Below, one piece after another: positions 3,000 to 47,253 of a stretch of 47,253 bases of DNA. The stretch is from Rhopilema esculentum. Lineage: Eukaryota. Every line of letters starts with the position of its first letter. Position 1 is the stretch's first letter. The stretch covers positions 5,477,008 through 5,524,260 of the forward strand of contig NW_027019762.1 in assembly GCF_013076305.1 (NCBI RefSeq), written 5' to 3'. A program made the position numbers and the translations under genes. The notes under the pieces are model-generated. The model was not told where the DNA came from. It was given only the letters and a program-made list of their open reading frames with translations, and did no database searches.

Positions 3000-3382
3000 T
3001 CAAAAGAAATTATTTTCATAATCAAAAAAGAATGGGTGATATCCACTATACCACAAGACTACTGATATTCCAGGGGGCGGCTGGCTATGATAAGCTGTTG
3101 GATGCATATACCAGCCCGACTTAACATGCTTCACGCCATATCCCACGATTTCAACGAAAATGCTGTTAAAACTGCAAGTTGTTGTTACCACGAGATCTCC
3201 CCCTGAACCACTTGTTGCTTGAAAAGCGACACATTTTCTTGAGATTACGTGCATCATCTGGTTTTGCCCGTTTTTGCAAAACAGTTGACATTGGCGCGTT
3301 ATTGTTAGCTTTCCTTGCGAATTCACTTTCACGCACATGTTGTGTTGGTATCCCTTGAATGCCAAGTAGAATGGTGTTTCAG
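3000..3382 (-). CDS. Terminal coding exon of paralog A: cysteine-containing domain, tentatively the C-terminal half of a fibrinogen-related domain (FReD)
   Basis: Acceptor is taatttacag|CTGAAAC. Translation is ETPFYLAFKGYQHNMCVKVNSQGKLTITRQCQLFCKNGQNQMMHVISRKCVAFQATSGSGGDLVVTTTCSFNSIFVEIVGYGVKHVKSGWYMHPTAYHSQPPPGISVVLWYSGYHPFFFDYENNFF, followed by a stop. FCKNGQNQ…KCVAFQA resembles the FReD FSTKDQDND…NCAEKFQGA motif. The stop is conserved with paralog B. Confidence 0.4.
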
Positions 3383-4037
3383 CTGTAAATTAAAATAATT
3401 TCATTACACAGAGATAACAAAAGATCTTGAAATCTTATCTTGAAATCTTCAAAATAGAAATTAGATACTGAGAAAGAGCAGGCTTCTTATCCTGTAGCCA
3501 GATATATTTTGCTATGCAAGAAAGTATTTTGTAAATAAGCTACAAAAATTTCTTCAGATAAATCATTTTCGGCGGATAAACTTCGTCGAAAAAAATTTAA
3601 GACATCTTTTCAGAATTGAGGCAAAACTCGTATGCAGTAGTTTGCTTAATTCTAAATCTCGTATGCACCGACTCCAGTAAACTTAAAATCTTGAAGAAAT
3701 TCATTCATTGGACAAATTTCGGACGTTTTTTACAAAATTCATATCGTAACAAATTTTCGGACAAAAACAAAAGCAATAGAATAACATTTAAACAGCATGT
3801 TACTTCTTATAAAGCTTACTATGAAGTCAATACCTCATTTGATTTAAAATCGAAAGTCACATGAGTTCAAAGAAGTCGTTATTCCAACTCTCTCAATGGG
3901 GATCTTGTTTTTTTCATTTCAAGAGCCATTGCAAAAACTTTTGAAATCATCCTACGATTGCTGCAAATTTCACCGTGACATATATCAAAACAAAGATATA
4001 AATTACCATTTGATATTTTCGCATCTACTATCTCGAT

Positions 4038-4412
4038 CAATAAGATAAGGCCTACCTTTGTTTCTTAAAGGATACAGATCCCAGCCTTTGGTTATGTTTG
4101 CCCTGGTATGAAGCGACTCGAAACATTCCAAGCGCGCAAGTATGCATTCCACCCCAGTCGCACCAGTTTTTAGGATGAGAAAATTAGCAACATTGCAATT
4201 CTTATTCATTGTACACCGATGTATACATAATTGAATGCTGGCTACTTGCAGTTGCTGGGAATAAGGTGGCAGTAGCTTCATGTCTTTCAGGTATTTCTCT
4301 ATTACCCATCCTTGCCCCTTTGTGAGCAAAAGAATCAGTTGCAGCAAAGTTGAAAGTGGACCAGGCTCAAACAGCTTCATTTTCTCGAAGAGTCTCGTCA
4401 TCAACTAAAAAC
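4038..4412 (-). mobile_element. Interspersed repeat copy A (about 375 bp, SINE-like, with tRNA-like A and B box motifs)
   Basis: It is about 98% identical to 10784-11155. The minus strand carries TGGCGCCACTGGGGTGG (A-box-like) and GTTTCGAGTCGC (B-box-like). Sequences outside the shared ends are unrelated, so this is an insertion rather than part of the segmental duplication. The long ORF across it (4003..4404) is probably fortuitous. Confidence 0.5.
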
Positions 4413-8932: not shown

Positions 8933-9315
8933 TCAGAAGAAATCATTCATGAAATTGAAAAAGAATGGCTGATATCCACTATACCACAAGATTACTAATA
9001 TTCCAGGTGGTGGCTGGCCCTCATAAGCTTGTGCATGCATATAAAAGCCCGACTTAACATGCTTCACGCCAGTTCCCAAGACTTCCACGAACACGCTGTT
9101 ACTATTGCAAGTTGTTGTCACCACGATATTTCCCGTCCACCATTCCTTTGCTTTAAAAGCCATACACTTTCTCGAGACTACGTGCATCATCTGCTTCTGT
9201 CTATTTATGCAAAACATCTGACATTGGTGCGTTATTGTAAGGTGTCCTTGCGAATTCACTTTCACACACATGTTCTGTTGGTTTCCCTTGTATGCCAAGT
9301 GGAACGGTCTTTCAA
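8933..9315 (-). CDS. Terminal coding exon of paralog B (about 72% amino-acid identity to 3000-3382)
   Basis: Acceptor is tcatttacag|TTGAAAG, at the homologous position. Translation is ERPFHLAYKGNQQNMCVKVNSQGHLTITHQCQMFCINRQKQMMHVVSRKCMAFKAKEWWTGNIVVTTTCNSNSVFVEVLGTGVKHVKSGFYMHAQAYEGQPPPGILVILWYSGYQPFFFNFMNDFF, followed by a stop. All cysteines and the stop position are conserved with paralog A. Confidence 0.4.
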
Positions 9316-10783
9316 CTGTAAATGAAGGTAAATTTATTTCTCAGTAAAAATGGGAAGCTCTTCGTGTAGCTAAATCACATTGAGCCGCTGAACAGCAATA
9401 TCAAATAGGAGATAACAATAATAAAAATTGTTCTTGGGTACACCAGCATTTGATTCAAATACTGTTGTTTTCATTTTCCTGCTTTTCTAATAGTTTAGCA
9501 AGCCCTTATCCTCAAATGTCTCCATCATGAAGTAGCAATTTTGCAATATAATGCTTAATTCCATGATCAATTATATTTTTAACCGAAACTCAAATAAAAC
9601 AAATCATTAAAGTTATTTTTGTCAGCATTGACTCCCAGAGCCTACTGTTTCTCAAAAAAAGTTAAATAAGCGAAAATATTTCTAAAAAAATAGGTTATTA
9701 GGTTATTTTTAAACCCCAACCCTTATTTAAGCCAAATTACTAAAAGACTTTTGCTCTAGCTTCTTCTTCTGCGTAATTGAGCGGTTTTTATACGTTCGAT
9801 GAACAAAAAACGAACATTAAACAACATTAAACAAGATAGAGCCACGGAAAAATCCTTGCAGTACTCTTGATAAGAATGTATCTAACTTCTGTTGCAAAAT
9901 TATAGCTACTGAATGGATCCCAATTCAGAGGGAAGTTATAAGGTATACAGAAGATTCTTGTCAATGTGAAGTCAGTCGCGCAGTCCAAACCCTTAAACTT
10001 CACTCCTTTTCAATGCAGGTATATTGAGTATCAAAGTTTTAAAATTATCTAACCCGACTATTTCAAGTATCATGAATCTAAAAGCAGCCTAAAAATTCTC
10101 AGTCATGCCAAAAGTAAGTAATGAAACGGTTAAGTTAGGTTATATTACAGTGATAGCAGTTCAGAGATAGTCGACAAAAATTAAAGTATTATCTTTTCTT
10201 GTTGAAAAGTGACAAACCGTTTGCTAAAGCGTTGAAGCGTTTACTTTTGAAAGGAATTTTAGATACAGCTGTTAATGGGTGTGGTACATATTTCGACCTG
10301 ATTTCGATAGGAGTACACTTTTAAACCCTTCTAATTGACTTTCATTCCTATATTCTGCCTGAACTTTGATTGCATTTAATTGCATTGTATTGTTTTGACT
10401 CGTTAGTTTTAGTCCTTCGTAAAGAAATCGGATTTAGGTTTTCGGGGTTTTATACTCCAAATGATATATTTTAGATGGTATTAATTCGATAGCAGCGCTA
10501 ACACGAATGAGTATGGCATCTTCCAAATACCGATTTTGCTGTAAAAGACCTTGTTGAAAATTTTAGTATTGGAAAAAGAAATTGAAGCATGTTTCTCCAA
10601 AACCTCTTCAAACCTTTTCTTCGACAACCTAGTTTCACATACAATACACATAAATAGCATTGACTTTATAAATATCTGATTTTCAGAGTTTTAAGTTAAG
10701 ACCATATCATCTGTTGACAGATAAATGCCCAAATTTAAAGTTTCTACCACTTTAAATCTTCTCACCTCACCTACTGCCAAGGT

Positions 10784-11155
10784 GAAGGCCTACCTTTGTT
10801 TCTTAAAGGATACAGATCCCAGCCTTTGGTTATGCTTGCCCTGGTATGAAGCGACTCGAAACATTCCAAGCGCGCAAGTATGCATTCCACCCCAGTGGCG
10901 CCAGTTTTCAGGATGCGCACATTAGCAACATTGCAATTCTTATTCATTGTACACCGATGTATACATAATTGAATGCTGGCTACTTGCAGTTGCTGGGAAT
11001 AAGGTGGCAGTAGCTTCATGTCTTTCAGGTATTTCTCTATTACCCATCCTTGCCCCTTTGTGAGCAAAAGAATCAGTTGTAACAAAGTTGAAAGTGGACC
11101 AGGCTCAAACAGCTTCATTTTCTCGAAGAGTCTCGTCAGTAACTAAAAACTACTC
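10784..11155 (-). mobile_element. Interspersed repeat copy B (SINE-like)
   Basis: About 98% identical to 4038-4412, with the same ends (gcctacctttg … aactaaaaacta). Confidence 0.5.
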
Positions 11156-13289
11156 GATCGTTACTATCATTTAATAACAAATGCATGAATAATTTAAAGG
11201 ACAAATAAGTCGCATTAAGGCTTGCCAACATAGTTAATTTGCATACAATCTTCCATTATGAATTCCACGATCAGGGGCGTAGCTAGTGCGGGGTGTAGGG
11301 GGTGTAACACCCCTCAATTCCTCATGAATTCGTCGGTATATCTTCAGTTTGTCTACAAAACACTTAATTTGTCGGTAAAATCAGCTATAAGTAGGTGAAA
11401 TAGTACCTAAATTCTTCTCAATCTCTGTCTTCGTCGGTAATTTTTTCTATTGATGACCCTCCACCCCCCTAATCTGGAAGGTCAAGCGACGCCACTGCCC
11501 ACGATCGATGCAAATATTGTCTTCCTGCATATTTGTTGGTCCTTAGCTAATGCCATTAGCGATTCTAAGCTCCTTGATACTTATTTCACTCGCCATAGCT
11601 AGCAGTCATTTAACTATACCCTTTTTACCTGTGATATTGTCTTATTTCTTCACGTCTTTGCTGCCCGGGAATAAAAGCCCTTCTTTACATTTCATGGCAA
11701 CTCCATCGTTCTCTTTTTGATGATTAGAAATTTTGTTGGAAAGTACAGCAATGTCTCCCAAACTCTACATCCCATCTACGGCCGTCTGTTTTTTACCATT
11801 CCAGTATAACATACTGAGGTTTACACACGATAATGTAAACCAACATGCACAAAATTAAATTTTGCTGGATACACACGTTTTTGTTAATGTGCTTTAGCAA
11901 AATTTATAACGTGGGGCATAAAAATATATGCATGCATACACAAACTTTTGCATTCACAATTTTTTAAAACTGCATACAAAAAATGTTATTCTTTTTTGCC
12001 GCATTGGCGCGCCATAGCATGTGACTGTTGTAGACCATGGCATTCTATCTAGGCGAATTCTAAGCTATGCACCCCTGAGAGCATAAACCAATAGTAATAT
12101 GAGGTTTAATTTGAATGAATTATGAAATAAAAGAGTTATTTCATGTCCCACATGAAAATGGACAATGTGGCCCTTCGAAACTATAGCATAAAAAAACAAT
12201 GGCTTTTTTGTGACCGCTCACAAAAAAGGGGTTCACTGCAAAACAGAATGTCTTTATTGCTCGATCGGGGCCTTTTACTTTCAGCACATCATCGAGTTCA
12301 CTGGTTTTTCAAAAAGGCAAAAATTGACAAACAATTATGAATGAAGTCGCGAAAACATGATGCAGAGCACGAGGATGTCAAAACTGGAGTCAAAGTCATG
12401 TTTAATGATTTTAATCTCAATAAATGAAAAAAATTTGCAGCAACTTATGCTAGAGGCATATAAATGTATCACTTCTGGGAGCTCCTCCTTTCTGTTGAAG
12501 TTCTTCAAAAGAAAACTGCTGCCAAATAAATTAAGAACAAGCGACCTTCTACAAATTCCTAAAACTAGGACTAATTAATATGTTAACGAGTCTCTTTCAT
12601 TCAAGGATAGCATAGTTTGAAATCGGCTTCCAGACCAATATAAAGCAACAGAAAGCGAAAATTAGTTCAAAATGAAAAACCTAAGGTTGGAAAGAGTCCG
12701 GATGTTACTGCCGCGATTGTATTTCAAAGATTAACTCTGGAAATAGTGTAAATAGGGTAATATTGGCCTTTATTAGCACCAGCTATTTTATAGCCAACTA
12801 TAAATAAATTGCGTTATCATTATCATTATTACTATATGTCATCTTGCTGCTGCGGATACGCATTTATCTTTGTTCGAAAATTTAAAAACAAAATTTATTT
12901 ACTATAAGTACAAGTAGGCCACTTAAACGGTCAAGATATCGAGTGAGATGCTTCTCTTATCTTATCTTACTTTGAGATATCAAAATGGCCAGTGATCAAT
13001 AATTCAATCATTTAATGCTTGGAGCTGTATAGAATCTCCTCTTCAACTTCAAAGGAAAGTAGCCACCATCTAAGATCCCTTTTATCAACTGCAAATATTT
13101 ACAACGTATGGTGGCAAGAAACAGAAGGGACTAAGAGAACTAATGGCTCTTCGTCTCATTTGATACTTGAAAGTAATTAAAGCTTCACACATTCACTGCC
13201 AGATTTAATGCTTACGTTGGAGCTCAAGAGACTCGGTAGAATGAATTTGTTGATTTAGTAAGAAATGTTGACAAAACGGCAAAAAACCA

Positions 13290-15790: not shown

Positions 15791-17369
15791 ATAATCTTTA
15801 TCATTAATATCAGCATGTCCGTAATGCTCTTTGGCATGGGGGTTCTCAAATTTCGTACAGAAGTAGAGTACTCATTCCTGTTGTGATCTTGAGCTGTCTA
15901 AATCCTGAAACTTTTCTCACATGACATAGAGTGAACCTAATGCTATGGTAATACTAACTGAACACAAAGCCCGTGTGCAAAAATAAAGCAAAGCAGTAAC
16001 AAGCTCAGCACATATTTGAAACGTGGAAGCAATGAAACAATTTATGGACCATCAGGATTATGATTATGATTTTGATCATGTTAAGGCAATGAAAAATATA
16101 ACAGAGAAGAAATGACTTAAATAGCTTTAAACAAATAGCAAAGAGAAAGAAAACATGTTAAATCTAAGCTACATCGAAATTTTGGTAGGAAAATAACCTA
16201 GTGGTAAAAAATCATAGAATTTTATAGTGCATTTTGTACTGGAATGGTTTCATTACCCTTGAAAAATTTAAAGATATCATCTTGAAAGGGAATTGCTGAC
16301 ATTTTACATTTTCTTTCAGAATCAATTTCAGTACCCTCTTTCATATCGTGAAGGATGGTTGAATCTAATCGCAGCCTAACTTTAATTATTCACGATAGCG
16401 ACGGATCAAATCAAAGACCAGGTAATGTAAAAACATTGCATCATAAAAGTGACCTTCAACAGCTCACATCTGTATTCTCCTTTTGATATTTTCTTCTCAT
16501 CAACATCACACAGTGCCAAGACCTGTCGACATGGGAAAACAATGTCTTATCACAATTGACTTTCTCAAAAAATTGTAGCTTTTCAGGAACTGGAAATATC
16601 GCAACAAGACATGCACACACACATAAACGCCTAAAATATTTCCTATTTGAGATATAATCGATCTAAAATTCAAATCTTCAAAGGAAACTATATCTGCTAC
16701 GCAGTCATAATGAGAAATATTTTATGACAAGGTAGATAATAAAAAGGAATATCAATGTAAAATATATTAAAGATAGAGTGTATTAAGGGTATTAAAGCCC
16801 AGCTGAAATCTTTAAAAATTGTTAGACCGTTACATTCTAGTTATATTCAAAACCAAATTTCAAAAATGATTATGGTGTAAATTTTACCAGACACTTGCTA
16901 AAATGCGCAAATGACTTTGGTAGTAGCCTGTTGCTTAAACTGGAATTTTGGAAGAATTCATGATAGAAGTGACGATGGTCTTAAGGGGGGGGGGATGGGG
17001 GCCTTAAGTATAATATACAATTAAGAATACAGCAAGCTTGACAAAAATTATGATGAGGAAAAGATCTAATGCATGTTCGTCTGAAAAATGGACAATATTT
17101 TCATGAAGATATGCCAATGCTCTTTGGGTAACACAGAATAATTATCAATCTTTCTCATTTGACAAATTGTTTCGGAAATTGACAAATTGCTTGCCAGAGC
17201 AGAGACAGTCATTGCTTTGCTCTGCATCTGTATCTCTTATTCTAATTTCCAACAGTATATTAGAATAAACTGGGTAATTGCATAAGGTAATGGAATCCAC
17301 CCATAAAGTAGTAGCTGAGAAAAGCTGAGATCTATATACATAGTTTAATCGCCTTTCGAGTAGAAATAC

Positions 17370-27333: not shown

Positions 27334-27991
27334 CAAAATCTGAAGATTGACGTGTTAGGCCAGACAGAAAGTGAAGAGGTTCTTCTGGTGGTAAAGGCAG
27401 TTTTTTTTTCTTTTTCTTGGGAAACATTTGTGATTGTCCTAGAGCAACAAGAGATTTTCGTAGTAAAGATTCGCTCTGAATATTTGCTGCTTGTTTTTGG
27501 GCTAGTTTTATACAGCGTAGCTGAGAAGATTGCATCATTTTTTCTGGCGGTATTGATTGCAATGCTCCGCCGGCCTGTGGTGGTGCGGATGCAGAATGTT
27601 GCCAAGGCGGCAGTGGTGGCGATCCAGGCTGCATTGATAGAAGTGGCTGTTGTGCAAGTTGACGCGGTGGCGGTGGCGGCATCGGTGGTGCTCCAGGCTG
27701 CATTGATAGAAGTGGCTGTTGTGCAAGTTGACGCGGTGGCGGCAGCGGTGGCGCTCCAGGCTGCATTGATAGAAGTGGCTGTTGTGCAAGTTGAAGCGGT
27801 GGCGGCAGCGGTGGCGCTCCAGGCTGCATTGATAGAAGTGACTGTTGTGCAAGTTGACGCGGTGGTCGTGGCGGTGGCGGTGGGGTTTCAGACTGTAATG
27901 CATTGCTAATCTGTGGTGGTGATGGTTGAGGTCCTATTGGTACTGATCCTGGTGGTGGTATACAGCCTGATGGAGATCGAGAATTTCGCAT
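27334..27991 (-). CDS. Proline-rich repeat exon (about four tandem 21-residue QLAQQPLLSMQPGAPPLPPPR units with formin FH1-like polyproline), in-frame ATG at 27991
   Basis: The open frame translates as MRNSRSPSGCIPPPGSVPIGPQPSPPQISNALQSETPPPPPRPPRQLAQQSLLSMQPGAPPLPPP…, then a lysine run, then LPLPPEEPLHFLSGLTRQSSDFG. Donor is TTTTG|GTATGCAG. An alternative acceptor at tctccatcag|GC is possible. It is not clear whether this exon belongs to the same gene as the exons upstream. Confidence 0.45.
27590..27890. repeat. Coding minisatellite (63-69 bp units, 4 copies) inside the proline-rich exon
   Basis: ccaggctgcattgatagaagtggctgttgtgcaagttgacgcggtggcggcagcggtggcgct recurs starting at 27624, 27693, 27756 and 27819. 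Confidence 0.8.
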
Positions 27992-34365: not shown

Positions 34366-34696
34366 TGTCAAAAGAAAATTAGGATATTATACACTGGTAT
34401 TGGCAGACCTTTGCATCCATCAGTAAAAAAAACTGAGAGACACAAAAAGAATAAAATTGCAGCCTCTACTTTCATATCCTGTTTGTAACATAATTCTTAA
34501 TAAGTGGGCGTCTTTACGTGTAGCAATTTCTAAGTTTGCAGTAAATAAACTGGATTCTCATAACAAAGGTAATTATTTAATATTTTCAGTAGACGTTGAA
34601 ATTTTGTTTTATGATAACATTTCTGCTTCCGATCCTTGTATCCCGCAAAGGTCGTGGAAGTAACTCTCTAAAAAACTTCAAGTAATTATCACCAAC

Positions 34697-36239
34697 CTGT
34701 AATGGCAGTGGCGCATCGTGATCAAACTGTTGCCAGGTGACTCTGACTGACTCTAACACAGGTTGTTGGGCTTTATTCAGCTGCGATTTAATCTTGTCTT
34801 CCCACCTAGATTTGGCCTTTGCATCAAAGAACTCAGCAGCACCAGCACCAATCTGAGCAAGCTTGGTTAAAAGGTGTCTGTTTGCTGTTGACCCAAAGCC
34901 AAATGAAAATACTCGTACCAATCTTGAATTCTTTCGTATTGATGCCATGGTTGATATCTCTTCAGAAATTTCTCCATCAGAAAATAAAAACACATTCACC
35001 GGATGCGTAGATTTATCATCTGCCAAAAGATGCAGTTTTCGTAAGACTCGCCACAGAGCTGTACCGCCTTTCACAGGATGCATCTTGTTACAAAATTTCT
35101 TTGCTTCAGACAGTGATTCTGTAGATTTAGGTTGGCATTTAGGAAAAAGCTGGTCATAGTTTGTTCCAAAACCTATGATATTGAAAGAGCATTTTTCTGG
35201 CAACCTGAGTAAAGCCAGAATGACAGCTTTCTTAACATCATTGAAGCAATCTTTCATTGAATTTGATGCATCAATCACAAAAACGACTTCCATTTCTTTC
35301 TCTACTGTATCATCGAATTCAGGAAAGAAAGTCAACATGCAAGCTTGGTCATCGCTGTCTTCAGGATCTTGTTCTGACCACATCCTGGGCACATGAATTT
35401 CCGCAAGGGACACAAAAAGCTGAAAGCCGGTTCCAAGACCATGTGTGTCTGATTGAAGACCAACTACTGCCTTCGTATCTGTCCTTTTTACTTTAAGCAA
35501 ATGTGTCGGAGACTTAAGTTCCTTGATTTTAAACGGCATGTCAATGGAAATTAAAAGAGAAAATTTTTCTTCACTCTCTAAAACATCAACTCGCTTTACG
35601 TCTGATTGTATGACTTGGTCAAGAGCTTTGTCACGTTTCCATGGGGCAACTGAACCAGGGAGCGAGAAGTTTACCATCTCACCCTCTAAGGGCAGCTCTG
35701 AAACGTAGGTAATTTTGATAATAACCCGAGCTGCTGCCGGAAGATTTCCTACACTTACAGTGAATACATCAGGCTTCTCTTCATCCATTAAGTAGGCACC
35801 GTGACCTTGGCTTATAGCTTCTTTGTACTCTTTGTGGGCCTTCTCTTTCTCTTTAACCTGCCCAACAATATGCTTCCCATTGATAAATGCCTCAAAACCA
35901 CAAACTGCAGCCATGCTGTTTAAAGGAAATACATATTTGGCTTCTATAGACTCTGAACTTTCATTGACATACTCTTGAAAAACGACCACCTCTGCTGCAA
36001 GGTCTACTAGCTTTGCTCTCACGTGGACAGATTTCAAAGGGACCGGCGTTTCACCATCCGTTTGCAAACCTGGTACCACCTTTTCTAGTGGATCTGGAAC
36101 TGCTTCAACGTCCTCTAAGCTTATCTCAGAAGAAGAGGTCTGATAATCTGACTCAATACCCTCATCTTCTGACAAAACTTCCAGTGACTTAGAGGGTGAG
36201 ACTTTAGCGTCACCGTCTATCGTAAATTCCACCAAATAC
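34697..36239 (-). CDS. PARP4: PARP4-like large exon: VIT domain plus VWA domain
   Basis: Acceptor is cgccattccag|GTATTTGG (phase 2). The 514-codon translation includes VHVRAKLVDLAAEVVVFQEYVNESSESIEAKYVFPLNSMAAVCGFEAFINGKHIVGQVKEKEKAHKEYKEAISQGHGAYLMDEEKPDVFTVSVGNLPAAARVIIKITYVSEL (VIT) and VVFVIDASNSMKD … FSFGFGSTANRHLL (VWA). Identity to human PARP4 is high, for example AKYIFPLDDKAAVCGFEAFINGKHIVGEIKEKEEAQQEYLEAVTQGHGAYLM. Donor is CAG|GTTGGT after WQQFDHDAPLPLQ. Confidence 0.9.
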
Positions 36240-37339: not shown

Positions 37340-37987
37340 CTGAATGTTATGAAACAAAGACATTAGGGTTCGCAAGTTTTGCATAAACTTTGAGTATGTA
37401 AGTATGTATATACGTAAGAGATGTTAACGATAAAGCTGAATCTACAACGTGTGCCGAATGTAGCAGAGTTTAGAAAAGAGGATATGACAACAATTATTCA
37501 ATACTGTGTGCTTTTGATATTGATGTACTGGGGCAGAGAGCTGCTTTTAGAACATTTAATTTTACCTTTGATATTAACTACGAGGGATCCTATTTTCGAA
37601 AAATAAATTAGAGGACCAAACAAAGGCAGACGATAATCAATACGGTCTAATGTTAGCTGATGAAATCGGGGATTCTTGGATTAATTTCTAACAGAAAAAA
37701 ACGTAAAATGTTCACGTTAAATGCAGTCAAGAACGAGAAAATGAAGAAAACAAATGATCATTTATCAATATTTTTCAAGAAGAAATGCAGAGAAGAAAGG
37801 CTTGTTTGATGAAAGCTGAGACAAATAATCCTTCGTAAATGTCAATCCTATAAATATCACTGGCATAATCACTGGCTACTTTTAGCATTTGGTAAGAGAA
37901 AATGACATTCATCTACACCCCTGAGGGTGAATCTTTGAATGTTTCATTGACAGAGTCACCTTAAAGAAGTGTTTACAAGCAAAGTAC

Positions 37988-38712
37988 CTGGCAGAATTTG
38001 CAAAATAAATCCCAGAGCCAAGCATGCCAGGATCAGTTCGAGTTCCACCAAAATCATCCACAACCACTTTGGGAAGTAGCAGGCCCCGGGATAGGATCCC
38101 TACGAAATTTCTTGCTTGTGACGAATGAAACAACAGTTGTTTATTAGCCAAGCTGGAGCTAAAACCCTCGTCTTCAACAGCGCGATTCACTTCGAAGATA
38201 TTTTTGACAGCAATAACATTCTTTCCAACTTGGCTTGAAATGAACAGATTTTTTATTTTCTCATTGTCATTTTCACTTGGGTTAAGCCATTGTATATTGC
38301 ATCCGAGAGCCTTATACTTTGCTCTAGCACTGCTTGTTTTGGCCCAGTTGGTAGCTTCGCTTACTGAAATAACATCTCTGATAACTTGGCACAAATCCAT
38401 TTTCCGTCGGATACAGCTAATTGAAGCAAGGTCTTCGCGTACTTTGTGAGGTATTAGATCATAGAAGCTGTCTTCAAGAGCCGCTAGTACTAAAAATTGT
38501 CCCGTGGCATCTTTTGCGAGAGAATTTTTGATAGAAAGCAAAACACTCTCGGCCTGGTCTAGTTTTGATGCTTTTATTGAGTCAATTGGGACACTAAGTA
38601 TCTCAGTTAAGTTGCCTTGTGCTTCATTCCAAAAATGATCGACTAGGGTAGCGACTTTTTCATCGATAGCAGTATCACCTTCTTGATTGTGCAAACGCAT
38701 CTCTGCCAATAA
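37988..38712 (-). CDS. PARP4: PARP4-like large exon: PARP regulatory (helical) domain plus N-terminal part of the catalytic domain
   Basis: Acceptor is tttttttcag|TTATTGGCAGAG. The translation runs LLAEMRLHNQEGDTAIDEKVATLVDHFWNEAQ … DLIPHKVREDLASISCIRRKMDLCQVIRD … NKQLLFHSSQARNFVGILSRGLLLPKVVVDDFGGTRTDPGMLGSGIYFANSA. It is collinear with human PARP4 from LASEQLQALLLEEV through RPLLHGSPVQNIVGILCRGLLLPKVVEDRGVQRTDVGNLGSGIYFSDS. Donor is GCCAG|GTACTT (phase 2). Confidence 0.85.
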
Positions 38713-39432
38713 CTGAAAAAAATGAGAAAGACCCAAGAATAGCACGTTTTTCTCATTTCGAAGAATCTATTTACCAAGTAAGCATCACACTAATTGTTTC
38801 ACAGAAATTTTTTTCACCACTTTCATAAATTTTCACGCGTACTGGGCCTATGTATTGCAAAACAAACAGCATCCTTACAGAATTTGAAAATGCAGACGAT
38901 ACTCTCTACGAGCCCAAAAACTTAGGCCACCAAATACCAGAAAAATCACTAAAGGAACATTTTGATTTACACTAGCAATTTACTTAAGTGTCAATCAACA
39001 TAGACTCACTTAATAGAGAATCCTTTAGTGTAGTAGAGGCTAGCGATAGATTCACAGTTTCAAGAATAAAACATCGTTTTCATTTATTAAGACATTAGTT
39101 TGGTGTACCACAGACAGCAGAAAAATTTAGCAGCTTGAGCATGACGTCTGAGAATACTGCCAGGATTAGAATAGCCAAATCAACAGTTAAATATTATTCC
39201 TCTTCTCAAAGCAAACAAACTGTCCTAATTCCAAAAATTATAGAAAGCTATGAAACAAGTGTACCAATCTTTAAATGGACTTAAACTTAAACTCAAACAG
39301 GCTATAGCAAACATTAATTAACATTAAAAATATTAAAACGAAAATAAAAAAGTGAACAAACAAAAAGTAAATCCAAAAGGAGCACCTTACAGCAAAAAAA
39401 TATTTGAATGATTTGTGAAAGAGTCAGCATAC

Positions 39433-40862: not shown

Positions 40863-42273
40863 CTGGTAATAAATTAACAGTAACATTCAAGTCAATCAGT
40901 ATATACAAGAAGAAAATATTGAATAAAAAGATATACTTTTAAAAAAAAATTAAATAAATATAGAGCAGACCTTTTAAGTTTAAGTTTTAAAAAATGAGGG
41001 AGTTCTGTGAAAAAGTAGGGAAAAGGTTTGGGCAGTCATGGAATTTCAAGGTCAGAGACAGATCCAGAATGATTCATGACTGCCACACTGCATAATCAGA
41101 GTCAGAGGTTGCAGCCCAAGAAACTTTCCTGTTGTTTTGCCCCCTGCTTTGTTAAAAATGCATATCTAGAGTGACCACCAATTATAGAGATATTTTTACA
41201 GTACGTTGTAATCATCAGTCAAGTTATTACATGAAAATCACTTGGCTCTGGGGGTGATATTAAAATCATGCTGGAGTTACTCCATAGCAGAGGGTCTTAG
41301 TGTACCACAGGAATCCAACCTACTTGCTACTGAACCTAAAACTTTTTTATCCTTTCTGCTTTGAAACAATTTGGTCATTAGTAAACAATTTGTTATTTCT
41401 GAGATTTTGAGCTGGCTATTAGATAAAACCCAATGATAATCATCTTAAAATTTACTAATTTTTGGTATAAAATTGATATACCAAACAGTTACACTGAGGT
41501 GGCACTTGGACAGACATGCTTAAACACTGTGCTCTATCTTTCAATTGTTTTTAACCATTTTACACAGTTTTTACTGAGAATGATTTATAACAGTACATAA
41601 CTTCAACCAGGCCATCTGATAGTTAAATCTGGTGAACTTTATAAAAAAACTAGCTAAAGTGCAATGCACAGTGGGCCAGAAATTCAGAGGTATACTCTGC
41701 TGATATGGTGTAACTTTAACTTAACATAGATTATGCTCCTCCAATAAAATGTTCTTCGGTAAATTTGCAAACAATTTACTGTGTGTCATAATTGCAAAAG
41801 AGCTAACCTGTGTTTAGTGTTAACAAGAATGAAACAATTATATTTAACTAGCTCTCTCATTAAAATGACACTACTTAACCTGTGTGTGGATTTGCTGTAA
41901 TCTAGTCATTTGCTATTATTCTTAGGAAAGAGAGTTTTTGCTAAGGTAAGAATAAAAAATGACAAATTTGAATAAATCAAGAACTTCAATGCAAAATTAT
42001 TTGTTGCCTGTCAACATGATTTTGTGTCCCACACAACATGCATTAGACTTGGTCCATCTGATAGGGCAACATGAAATACTGCCAAATTCCTAAAGCCATA
42101 AACTCAGGTTGTGGATTTGTAAGTAAACAAACTTCAAACTGGACCATAGGTACCTTGTATACAAACACATAAGTTTTAACATAAAAGGAAAAAGAATGAT
42201 GCTAAAAACTGATGCTGGTTTCACCTCTACAATACGAATTAAGCAATGTGAAAATAACATATAACAAGTTTAC

Positions 42274-42478
42274 CTGTAGATGTGACTTTCCCACTGCTAA
42301 AATTGTTGGCTGGTTTTGTACCAAACAAAATGAAGTCATCTGGATGAAGCAACTTTCCTTTTTCAATGCAAGCAGTTACAAAGTCAGTTGAAACAACAGG
42401 TATCCCATATTTCAAGGCAGTTTTTATTTTGTATGATGGCTCACTGTCCTCTTTGGCTGATACCACCATATGTGTAAC
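42274..42478 (-). CDS. PARP4: PARP4-like exon 2 (BRCT domain C-terminal part)
   Basis: Acceptor is ttcttag|GTTACACAT. Translation is VTHMVVSAKEDSEPSYKIKTALKYGIPVVSTDFVTACIEKGKLLHPDDFILFGTKPANNFSSGKVTST. This matches the human BRCT region THIILDNADVLSQYQLNSIQKNHVHIANPDFIWKSIREKRLL. Phase-1 donor is ACAG|GTAAAC. Confidence 0.8.
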
Positions 42479-43376
42479 CTAAGAATGGTTTTAATAGCAA
42501 AATTAAGTTTATTATTTGACTAAATAAACTAAATAAGAAAGCACATTATTTGTATATTTAATATCTTCCTCAAATCTCTAGAATCCAATATTATAAACTT
42601 AAAGCTGTTCTATTAGTCAGGTTAGATTATTTGTGATTTCCTATCCACCATGAGTTTTCATTTTACTGAATCCTGCTCATATTGTAACACTGAGTTACTG
42701 TTTTAATCTTAGCTGTTTATTACCGTAATATTTAAACCAAAACAATTTTGTAAGGGTTGGTGATATTCCCTTGAAATAACATCTGATTTGAAAAAAGTAG
42801 GAATAAATCCAGGCTCAAAACGAAATTTTCTTTAGAACATTGAGGCAGGGCAAAATTTATAGTATTCTTACCAAAATGAAAAAACAACTTTAGAGTCACA
42901 TGGCTTGTAATCCAGGCTGCAGAATATGGCAAGTGAACACCTGAGATATTTTTTCAAAAATGTCCCTGCACACCCGGTATGACATGGGTGTACCTTATTG
43001 CTTAGAGCAAATGAAGAATTAAGTTTCCTCAAGATCATGTACAGTTTCTGATCTTCATTTTAAATATCCTTTAAATATCATTTGGCTCTAGCATAGCTGA
43101 CCATACTAAGGTGCACAACTCTGGTGCACACTTAAACCAAAATGCACACTCGCACACTTGAAATTTTGCTTTAGCACACCTGAGATCCTCTTGGAAATTG
43201 TCATACTCTGCAGTCTGACATGTTATTAGCTGCAGAGTACAACAATTGCTGAAAGAATTTTTTCGAGTTTGAGTTTGAGTTGTGATGCAAAACCGTGATA
43301 AGCTTTGACCTTGTACGGTTGAATAATTAAAAATCGCCCAGGTTTTTTATGATTTCTCAAGAGAACATAAGGATAC

Positions 43377-43511
43377 CTTTTTTGTAACGATATAGGAAAT
43401 GATTCCATCATTGTCTGTTATCTGTGCCCGTAGAATCTTCTTTAACTTGAATGAAAATGAGTAATCCAACACTAGACACACTAGACAGTTACTGAAAATC
43501 TGCTTGGACAT
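43377..43511 (-). CDS. PARP4: PARP4 (vault poly-ADP-ribose polymerase)-like, first coding exon with ATG
   Basis: Minus-strand translation is MSKQIFSNCLVCLVLDYSFSFKLKKILRAQITDNDGIISYIVTKK. It aligns to the human PARP4 N-terminus (GIFANCIFCLKVKYLPQQQKKKLQTDIKENGGKFSFSL). The ATG at 43509-43511 is the first in-frame ATG after an upstream stop. Phase-0 donor is AAG|GTATCC. Confidence 0.75.
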
Positions 43512-43621
43512 CTCTCAATCTATCTGTATTCTGTAAGATTAAAAATAAGATGGTTATCTTCCTTGGTATAACCACTTGTGCTTCCCCTTGGGTAGGTGGG
43601 AAAGCTAAGTACACATGAGGG

Positions 43622-44671
43622 CAGGGCCGTAAATCTGTCATGTGAATTGGGAGGGTCAGCAGGGCGGATGAATATAAAGTATGCAGTGGGTCATGGCACC
43701 ACAAGGAATTTATGGTATGTGTTATGGAAACAGTTGAGGGGCAAATTACTTTAAAAACAAAAGTCAATATTTTTGGATTTCTCAAGACTTTCTGCTCTAT
43801 AGAAGGTTTTTACAGATTTTCCTTAGTACATTGACTTGTGTGTATGATTGGATGGATAACATTTTTCAGAGACGGCCTCAAAAAATTGAACCTTGGGAGC
43901 TAAGAATCAAGTTTACTGTCGTAGGAGGACCCACCATGGTTGGGTCTGACGCGAAAGAAAATTTTTGAAATTTTACCTTCTAGAAAGGCTAAAAAAGCAT
44001 CCCCCAGACTAAATTTAAAAATACTAGAATCGCTCAGAATATAAAGTTCGGCGTTTCTCAGAAGAACACAGATTATTGTTTATTGGGTGAAATTTTGGAG
44101 GGGAAGAGTCATGCTTAAACCTTAGTGACAGACTTTGGGGAAATATGGGACGCTGTTGTATTGATTGGTAGAAATTTACTTTCTGAACAGAAATGTGCGT
44201 CTTCCTTATTTTGACTGATTTCAGTAGGCCATGTTTACACATAATAAATGAATACATTGTAATGATACAGAAAGTGATTTACTAAATAAAAGTAAATAAT
44301 AGACAAATAATAGAAATGTACGTAAATAAGTTAGTAAATAGGTCAAATAAAATGACAGATTGCTCTCTTTTTATTTCATACTCTGTTTTAAAAAATAAAA
44401 CGGTAGAAAACAGTAGAAAACGGTAAAAAACGGTAGAAAAAGGTAAGTTTTTATCTTGTAAAAATTTTAAAAACCACTCTGCTTACAAAAATTACCTTTG
44501 TGACTGAGGTTTGTTGCAATAACACAGAAAACGTAGTTTGGTTCTAACCCGGCTACCAGGGATTTCTTTCTTTCAAGGAAAATGATGGTAATTTCTCCAA
44601 AAAAATCGTTTTGCTCCAGATTTTTGGGGGGGTCCAGTCCCCTCCGTCCCCCCCCGGGATTTACGGCCCTG
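43622..44671. mobile_element. Non-autonomous hAT-like DNA transposon (about 1050 bp), 14 bp perfect TIRs CAGGGCCGTAAATC and 8 bp TSD CATGAGGG
   Basis: The left TIR at 43622-43635 is cagggccgtaaatc. The right end at 44658-44671 is gatttacggccctg, its exact reverse complement. A direct repeat catgaggg lies at 43614-43621 and again at 44672-44679, immediately outside each TIR. There is no transposase-length ORF inside. Confidence 0.65.
44394..44446. repeat. Tandem 10-mer (AAAACGGTAG) in about 5 copies
   Basis: aaaacggtagaaaacagtagaaaacggtaaaaaacggtagaaaaaggtaag, lying inside the hAT-like element. Confidence 0.7.
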
Positions 44672-47253
44672 CATGAGGGGGAAACCATGGACACTTAGAG
44701 GAAACTATGAAAAAAAATTTGAAAAAAGAATGGTTGGATATTACAGCTTAACTAGAATATTACCTAAGTATGCATATTTTGTGCATTAAAGATACTTGAC
44801 AATTAGTTGGCAGTATTGATGATAAGCAAAGCAACTGATCAGGGTTGAGCTGAGGGGTTTTGCTGATACCGCATTATGCTGTCCTGTCATCACTGTCATC
44901 ACGAGATAGCGAATCTGTGCAAGCACATCTTACTTCTTATTCAAGTCTTCTTAGCTCGGTCAATGTTAAATATCTGTTGCATACTTAAATATATGTTGCA
45001 TATTTTGCAATATGCATTGCTAGATTTTGATGGAAACAATTAAAACGACTAAGTATAGAACCCTCTGCAAGAAAGCTTTGAGCCCTCGATGAAATAGATA
45101 AATAGGCCTATCGTTACTTGCTCGTTCTCGGCGATTAACTTGCAAGTCTATTTCTTGAAGCATAAAAATAAAAACAGATTAGACCTTTTCGTTCGCACCT
45201 TTTTCACTTACTGAACATATCTTCCTCCGTCTGAGGGTGCGATTTGCTGCAATCAAACCAGTCGTGACACTGACAAAATTTCCTTCCGCAACTGCAACAA
45301 GAACAACAACAGTAATGACTTATGACGTCACCTTGCTCAAATTAGCCTGATTCGTCATATTCCATGGATTCTTTTAAAAGGGCTAATTTTGGACGAAAAT
45401 TGTTTATGATTTTTGTTACGGTAGAAAGGTATAATTCAATATCGTGTACTTAGTTCACGTGGTTATCAAAATGAACTTTTGTTAAATTTTAACTATTGTC
45501 CTGTTCTAGCTTTCAATTGGTTGCAACATTGTCCTGTTATCATTGGCAGTGGCGGAAACTGCAGGGGTGTGGGAGATGGGGGGGGGGGCTGTAGGGTTAC
45601 AGTTTTACCAAGAAGGGCTAACAAATTGTAGACTGAGAGGCGTAGTCTAATCATACCTTCAGATAATTTTGGTAAGCCAAATCGTATTAAAGTTCCCCCT
45701 CAGATCCGGTCCAAACAACATGATTTTTTCATTATAAACTAATTTAAAGATGAAGACTTCAATTCTGACATTTTTTCAACTTTTTTCATTGACATCCTCC
45801 ATCTTAGTAATTTTTGTTACTAAGACGTAAAAAACACTGTCGAATTCAGTGCAAATTCAAAGTGGCTGCACAAAACTACAGCTTGATGCTGGGCCAGTAA
45901 TATTCCCTTTATGCCCTTCTTTACCAGAAAAAGAGATAACTTCCAAATAACGTATAATCCCAAAAATTGCAAACTTTTCAATTAAAAAGTGCGCACATGA
46001 ACAAGAGGGTGTTTTGAGAGTACCTAGGACTCAAAACCCGGAAAATAGTTATGAAAAACGGAAAACCAGGACTTGGAAATTGGAAAATCCTGAGACAAAT
46101 ATGTATATTTCAACGTGGTTCACCTTTTCCTGTGTTCTGCATTAAAAGACCTTCGTACCCGCAGTTATTACCAGCAAGAATATTTGCCTGCAAGGCACAG
46201 GGTAGATCCTTGCCTTTTTTCTCCAAATAAAGATGTCATCAGTGTTTGCAGAAGAACAGAATTTTAGGGAAATTTGTCGTAGATTGCGGAAATCTGGCAA
46301 TTTCTCAACGGAACGAGGGAATTCTACACACTTGACGGACGCAGATTTTTTCAAAATAATACACGGATTGCAGAAATTTCAAAATGTTTAGCGGGATTCT
46401 TAACCTGCTCCTTGATGGATAGGATTTCATCATCGCATGTTTTGATCTTGTTAACTTGTAAGTTGTTCATAAATAAACTTATAAACATTCAGAAGTGGCT
46501 CCAGAAATCTTCCGACAGAGGGGCTGGAGCTTCCAACAGGGGGGGGGGGCTAAATTTACTATAATATGCAGTTTTCGTACGTTACTTTGTCAAATTTGCT
46601 CCGACAATAACCTAAAATTTTCTTCCCATAGGGGGCTGGATGCTTCCGATAGAGGGACTGTCGTGCCCTAGCCCTCCCCTGGCGCCACCACTGTATACAT
46701 TCTATTGCCCAGTTGCCCCCTATCTGCTATTTTTTACCAGAAAGTACTTATTTCCACATTGTAAGAGCGTGTATGTTGAATAAAAGTTGTTCAGCATGAA
46801 ACCGTCTTTCAGAATATGTACATAAAATGTGGTTTTAGCGACATCAAAATTTGAACCCCTGCTGATCAGTGCGCCATATGGGATTTGCCCAAATAAGGAA
46901 TTCCCAATGTCCAATTGATGGGACTTTTTTCTGGTTATTCCCAGTATCGTATGGAACCTATGTGCCAAATTACAGCTTTTAATTATTTTTGTCCGGGTAA
47001 AATCATACTTCCACCACACCATTGCTTTTCGCTTGAATTCTATGGTTTCAATCTCCTTTTAGTCTATAGCTGAAACTATTTCATCTATTTTAGTTTCATA
47101 TTTTTGCCTTCTATAAGGTAAAAAATCAATTTTGGAAAATCGTTTTAAAACTTTAAAGCATACAAAAGCTTTTCGTCTGGCATTCTTCAGTGTAGTAGCT
47201 CAACCAATAAACCGAAACATTTCGTCTCGGTTGGTAGGCTTGTTGTGGCCGAC

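Follow-up and report, generated by a model that had tools for sequence, protein, structure and literature searches.

The window analysed here is a 47,253-nucleotide stretch of the Rhopilema esculentum genome (RefSeq assembly GCF_013076305.1, contig NW_027019762.1, positions 5,477,008 to 5,524,260 of the forward strand); positions are counted from its first letter. It carries a PARP4 gene on the minus strand, with exons that encode the BRCT, PARP catalytic and VIT/VWA domains, and, upstream of the PARP4 start codon, a non-coding element of 1,050 bp (43622-44671) whose G+C content of 36% is that of the window as a whole. Judged from its ends, which bear the signature of the hAT superfamily, this element is quite probably a DNA transposon of class II (cut-and-paste) and non-autonomous.

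The element begins and ends with the 14-bp terminal inverted repeat CAGGGCCGTAAATC, found at 43622-43635 on the plus strand and at 44658-44671 on the minus strand. The two copies are complementary at 14 of 14 positions, and both termini read CAGGG, which is a YARNG motif of the hAT type. Each terminus is abutted on the outside by a copy of the 8-bp target-site duplication CATGAGGG (43614-43621 on the left and 44672-44679 on the right), a sequence that occurs only twice in the window, both times flanking the element. The duplication allows no extension to either side and is therefore exactly 8 bp long. When positions 43400-45000 are read through, the left junction is ...gtaca CATGAGGG CAGGGCCGTAAATC tgtcatg... 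and the right junction is ...ccggGATTTACGGCCCTG CATGAGGG ggaaacc.... The terminus CAGGGCCGTAAATC has one site per strand in the window even when two mismatches are allowed (0.09 expected from shuffles). The ends of the element are alike in their 14-bp termini only; the right end continues inward into a G8...C7 subterminal stretch (CCCGGGGGGGGACGGAGGGGACTGGACCCCCCC) that the left end does not have. A repeat finder reports the pair as 15 nt long and 100% complementary, since the adjoining G and C pair as well. A preliminary description of this DNA had reported two 14-bp termini that are exact reverse complements and the same 8-bp direct repeat outside each of them; both are as reported, with coordinates correct to the base.

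Could such an arrangement come about by chance? We made 200 composition-preserving block shuffles of the window and searched them with a 14-nt seed for inverted pairs lying within 6 kb of each other. Perfect 14-nt inverted pairs arose at a mean of 3.06 per shuffled window. Pairs with a flanking direct repeat of at least 6 bp were found in 0 of the 200 shuffles, whereas an exact-repeat scan of the real window finds exactly one. Multiplication gives a rough expectation of about 1e-4 such structures per 47-kb window. Because no shuffle yielded an inverted pair with a flanking repeat, the structure of the element is real and non-random, and not a chance pattern.

The element is non-coding and has no recognisable remnant of a transposase, in keeping with what had first been stated. 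Across all frames, stop-free stretches reach at most 84 amino acids. The ten longest stop-free segments gave only two matches in Pfam, both far below the cut-off, and a 725-amino-acid concatenate of the stop-free segments from all six frames had no match at E <= 1 among 5.8 billion proteins, a search aimed at spurious open reading frames (ORFs) called on other copies of the element. A tRNA scan found no tRNA. The sole match in an Rfam scan lies outside the element, which it adjoins at 44699-44886 (plus strand); it is a sub-threshold SCARNA7 match (21.2 bits, where the gathering score is 65; E = 0.014) and is most likely due to chance. The interior does contain the 10-mer minisatellite already described: TRF finds AAAACGGTAG at 44397-44445 (plus strand; period 10, 4.9 copies, 87% matches, score 77), and three AAACGG hexamers lie within it. 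This minisatellite and AATCTGTCAT, inverted at 44352-44361, are the only candidates for subterminal repeats.

The window was also scanned for similar structures, defined as YAG...CTR termini with an inverted identity of at least 10/14 and a flanking 8-bp repeat matching at 7/8 or better. Five candidates were returned, against 0.68 expected in shuffles. They comprise the element upstream of PARP4, a weak AT-rich pair and three short elements. One of these three, a hAT-like miniature element of 441 bp at 2017-2457 (2009-2465 with its duplications), is flanked by GTATGCTA matching at 8/8, has termini CAGAGGATCTTTTAA and CAGGGGATCTTTTAA that pair at 14/15, and contains repeated subterminal GTGGGGAA-like motifs. 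The other two have duplications matching at 7/8; they are an element of 226 bp at 11272-11497 (11264-11505 with duplications; termini CAGGGGCGTAGCTA and CAGTGGCGTCGCTT) and one of 204 bp at 46490-46693 (46482-46701 with duplications; termini CAGAAGTGGCTCCA and CAGTGGTGGCGCCA). The window thus holds three more such elements besides the one near PARP4, and we therefore conclude that elements with a CAG terminus and an 8-bp duplication have inserted repeatedly in this genome.

Outside the window, the 20-mer at the right end of the element was compared with metagenome contigs of the Joint Genome Institute (JGI). There was one match, at the extreme end of Ga0081606_1027486 (L003), an AT-rich eukaryotic contig of 2.8 kb that is rich in short inverted-repeat elements. 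One of these, 376 bp long (2282-2657), has the terminal inverted repeat CAGTGGCGTACCGAG and the 8-bp duplication GTAATATG. The 226- and 204-bp elements of the R. esculentum window have termini of the CAGKGGCG or CAGWRGTGGC type, which resemble CAGTGGCGTACCGAG, and G-rich subterminal boxes. Five matches on viral contigs, obtained in 18-mer and 16-mer scans, were all G+C-rich and did not extend past the search pattern; they were set aside as chance.

To which superfamily does the element belong? An 8-bp duplication combined with 5'-YARNG termini is diagnostic for hAT non-autonomous elements (PMC3014272), and we use the label hAT-like because the element has this duplication length and such a terminus. 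In Repbase, non-autonomous DNA transposons are likewise classified largely on the basis of terminal sequences and duplication features; its rule calls for equal duplication length and an alignment of terminal positions 1-11 with at most one mismatch to a classified element (PMC4455052). Over 11 nt, the terminus of the element matches none of the hAT termini compared here from PMC3014272. The non-autonomous families tabulated there are 288-1,485 bp long and have 12-16-bp termini, for example CAGAGCCGGYCC and CAGGGGTCCCCAAAC. A perfect terminus of 14 bp lies within the short range typical of hAT elements, roughly 10-25 bp; that of Hermes is 17 bp (PMC10368747), and those of Anolis hAT families are 12-16 bp (PMC3014272). 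The preliminary description had called the element a hAT-like non-autonomous transposon. Its structure, its 8-bp duplication and its CAGGG terminus all fit the diagnostic features, and that much of the claim stands; the superfamily itself we infer from the termini and the duplication length alone.

Non-autonomous hAT families (the hAT-N type of Repbase), such as hAT-N6/7/8_AC and hAT-HT2N1_AC of Anolis, have in common with the element an 8-bp duplication, 12-16-bp YARNG termini and the lack of an ORF; their termini begin with CAGAG, CAGGG or CAGTG, they are between a few hundred and about 1,500 bp long, and their transposase has to be provided in trans (PMC3014272). There is, however, no sequence similarity between them and the element past the first 5 nt, and the duplication of the element departs from the NTNNNNAN-type patterns of these families. 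With maize Ac/Ds, the element has in common the first five terminal bases, CAGGG, a likeness that is a lead and not a test. The Ac/Ds terminus is CAGGGATGAAA/TAGGGATGAAA; Ds is non-autonomous, is mobilised in trans and makes an 8-bp duplication, and its subterminal AAACGG hexamers bind the Ac transposase. In the element, unlike Ds, the three copies of AAACGG are all in the minisatellite, 225-275 bp from one end, and the other end is without them; the host, moreover, is a metazoan, and no other similarity to Ds is seen. The terminus of the Drosophila P element is 31 bp long and starts with CATGATG, which is not YARNG, whereas that of the element is 14 bp long and starts with CAGGG; the P superfamily does include non-autonomous, internally deleted derivatives. 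P elements too make an 8-bp duplication, and the one seen here falls within the 7-8 bp expected of them, but the P target motif GTCCGGAC is unlike CATGAGGG (PMC3276498). Miniature inverted-repeat transposable elements (MITEs) resemble the element in being non-coding and close to genes and in having inverted termini and a target-site duplication. Their usual length limit is about 800 bp, which the element, at 1,050 bp, exceeds; with termini of 14 bp and dissimilar subterminal regions, "non-autonomous hAT-like element" is a better label for it than MITE. The other three elements of the window, at 204-441 bp, have the size of MITEs.

A number of observations tell against a hAT transposon at this site. 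The duplication CATGAGGG and its complement CCCTCATG do not fit nTnnnnAn, on either strand; this target preference, found in Hermes, hobo and the Ac group, is a tendency and not a defining feature (PMC10368747, PMC3276498), and a single insertion cannot test a preference. Nor is an 8-bp duplication peculiar to hAT elements, as P elements make one in 98% of insertions (PMC3276498, Table 3). When the element was compared by blastn with the other 46 kb of the window, nothing above noise indicated a second copy. Two related PARP4 loci, on contigs from ENA metagenome assemblies (L001 and L002, with 72-73% identity over the exon protein), have neither the element nor matching termini, and their alignment with the window ends 62 nt short of the junction, so that they afford no empty-site comparison. 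Taken together, the window, these loci and the protein search yielded no autonomous partner and no second copy. Subterminal k-mer analysis found no 6-8-mer clearly enriched at both ends and no clear repeat array. Finally, the similarity to Ga0081606_1027486 beyond the 20-mer is modest (84% over 32 nt of G-rich sequence), and by a rough estimate the 20-mer match is itself at about chance level for a collection of this size; relatedness is plausible from the context, and the match is no more than suggestive.

The element might instead belong to another superfamily that makes duplications of about 8 bp, and have been moved by a transposase unrelated to hAT. Besides P, the Merlin, Mutator-like, Zisupton and Novosib superfamilies make duplications of about this length, and P elements favour the 5' ends of genes, which counts for a P-type origin; on the other hand, the canonical P terminus does not fit YARNG, Merlin and Mutator-like termini start with G, and Mutator-like inverted repeats are as a rule far longer. 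That no transposase partner of the element has been identified, that its duplication departs from the hAT target preference (PMC10368747) and that nearly all P insertions have 8-bp duplications (PMC3276498) would all be in line with such an origin. Yet the CAGGG terminus does fit YARNG (PMC3014272), its 14 bp lie inside the hAT range of 12-17 bp (PMC3014272, PMC10368747), and the neighbouring elements of the window have the CAG-plus-8-bp pattern too. We consider an origin outside hAT unlikely.

Two further explanations concern the structure itself. In one of them there is no mobile element at all, but a 14-bp inverted match and an 8-bp identity of its flanks, both of them accidental. A single copy and a short inverted repeat are what this would predict, the outside 20-mer match could be accidental too, and at an estimated 1e-4 per 47-kb window a large genome might hold about one such accident. 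Coincidence nevertheless seems very improbable, given the empty result from all 200 shuffles, a G+C-rich terminus in a genome of 36% G+C that begins with the canonical CAGGG, and a duplication of exactly 8 bp that exactly abuts the termini. Moreover, the same architecture is met three more times in the window, where 0.68 candidates are expected, and the lone metagenome match, which starts at the first base of the element, is to a eukaryotic contig with many similar elements. The other explanation keeps the element and parses it differently, with a 15-bp terminus (GCAGGGCCGTAAATC) and a 6-bp duplication (ATGAGG) left by a family that makes 6-bp duplications; Dada, IS3EU or an atypical hAT would be such families. 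The G before the left terminus does pair with the C after the right one (15 nt, 100%), but this parse has 21 matched positions against 22 for the parse into 14 and 8 bp, and the other elements of the window favour CAG termini with 8-bp duplications. To our knowledge a terminus starting with GCAG is not the signature of any superfamily, and we give this parse very little credence.

How would a hAT-like element have come to lie upstream of PARP4? A hAT transposase whose gene lies at another place in the genome would bind the 14-bp termini and the adjacent subterminal DNA, as is described for Hermes (PMC10368747), and would excise the element from its donor site. The two 3' ends of the element would then be joined to target phosphates with a stagger of 8 bp, at ...ACA/CATGAGGG/GGAAACC..., and gap repair would give rise to the two copies of CATGAGGG. 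An insertion of this sort predicts an empty site with a single CATGAGGG, reading ...ACACATGAGGGGGAAACC... (or ...GTACACATGAGGGGGAAACCATGG...). Mobilisation in trans, like the superfamily, is something we infer, here from what is known of hAT elements. The insertion had also been described as recent. For a divergence d between paired copies, the probability of finding no mismatch in the 22 paired positions is (1-d)^22, or about 0.32 for d = 5% and about 0.10 for d = 10%. The insertion is not ancient, and the intact duplication and termini support its being recent only weakly; its recency is not established by 22 matched positions, as a perfect match would have a chance of some 32% even at 5% divergence.

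The ATG of PARP4 and the inverted terminus of the element are separated by 110 nt (43512-43621), or by 102 nt with the duplication left out, which agrees with the distance of about 110 bp given in the preliminary description. The same description placed the element in the proximal promoter or 5' untranslated region (UTR), and this is probably wrong. There is a candidate 3' splice site of the polypyrimidine-CAG type, ttatttttaatcttacag (43531-43548, minus strand), at 19 nt 5' of the ATG; 91 nt separate it from the element, and its T-rich stretch and its AG show partial conservation in L001. On the far side of the element, a candidate PARP4 promoter and non-coding exon 1 can be made out at 45206-45330 (minus strand), where a cAMP response element (CRE) palindrome, TGACGTCA at 45323-45330 (minus strand), is followed after about 100 nt by ttcag/GTAAGTg, a strong donor with its G at 45211. 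The observed/expected ratio of CpG is about 1.0-1.1 at 44850-45450, the only non-depleted stretch near the gene, against 0.1-0.3 across the gene body and the ATG-proximal region to about 43950. L001 has the same order, with a CRE at 1171, GAGGAAG...GTATGT about 85 nt later (1171-1265) and a CpG-depleted zone of about 800 bp that reaches to the ATG exon. When the window DNA is aligned with L001 and L002, similarity is confined to the two 5' exons and to 40 nt on the 5' side of the ATG.

Because of the splice motifs, the CpG pattern and the layout of L001, we lean towards a short exon 1 without coding sequence, near 45212-45300, and after it a 5'-UTR intron that would hold the element. From such an intron, 91 nt upstream of the acceptor, the element would be spliced out, and its presence would be largely neutral. 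In the 5' part of the PARP4 gene body (42000-43950) the observed/expected ratio of CpG is 0.0-0.3, and L001 is alike in this respect; gene-body methylation in invertebrates produces such depletion. On this view 43512-43950 would carry gene-body methylation, and 44850-45450 would be a promoter free of it.

The exons of PARP4 itself are as follows. The first coding exon (43374-43511, minus strand, within an ORF at 43347-43511) starts at the ATG at 43511-43509 and encodes MSKQIFSNCLVCL...; in the alignment its GT donor comes after ...AAAAAAG. At the DNA level it is 75% identical to its counterpart, the first coding exon of PARP4 in L001, and it resembles the N-terminus of human PARP4. The BRCT exon (42239-42469), the regulatory and catalytic exon (37909-38745) and the VIT/VWA exon (34586-36235) are ORFs on the same strand. 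The VIT/VWA exon matches proteins that are named PARP4 by their source and have the Pfam set PARP, VIT, VWA and BRCT. For the 549-amino-acid exon, the best database match is 73% identical, and the nine best matches are ENA metagenome-assembly or Logan contigs; the nearest named PARP4 proteins are those of scleractinian corals (54-57%, with partial coverage) and oyster (51%).

Other features of these loci may be mentioned. At 27606-27879 a 63-bp tandem repeat of 4.3 copies lies in a proline-rich ORF (PPLPPP...QLAQQPLLSMQPGAPP); it may be a repetitive C-terminal exon of PARP4 or a separate low-complexity exon. Downstream of PARP4, similar ORFs on the minus strand come in two pairs about 6 kb apart, namely 3000-3365 and 8933-9298 (MAFKGYQHNMCVKVNSQGKLT... 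and MAYKGNQQNMCVKVNSQGHLT...) and 4003-4404 and 10771-11118 (MKLFEPGPLSTLLQLILLLTKGQGW... in both), a pattern that points to a gene duplication or to a segmental duplication in tandem, about 6-7 kb in size. In L002, a reverse-transcriptase (RVT_1) ORF is present at 15940-16767, some kb downstream of the VIT/VWA exon, a sign that a retroelement has inserted in the PARP4 region of that species.

What does the element mean for its host? A more far-reaching view would make it a member of a currently active, uncatalogued hAT-like family whose 20-nt terminus is common to it and a different host in the JGI data, either as an old, conserved transposase-binding end or through horizontal transfer; the insertion might also be a polymorphic allele that alters the 5'-UTR splicing or the promoter spacing of PARP4. 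This seems to us distinctly improbable. The hAT-like element described here is of an ordinary kind, with nothing in it to surprise a specialist; it probably comes from an uncatalogued family of a poorly sampled invertebrate, and it implies no new biology. Its significance extends little beyond annotation, in which the region is best masked or else labelled a non-autonomous DNA transposon of hAT-like type. If a non-coding first exon does lie at about 45212-45300, the element would be scored as intronic and not as a promoter insertion. And if hAT-type elements are active in this species, the perfect ends of this copy would make it a useful seed for a family consensus and for finding the autonomous partner.

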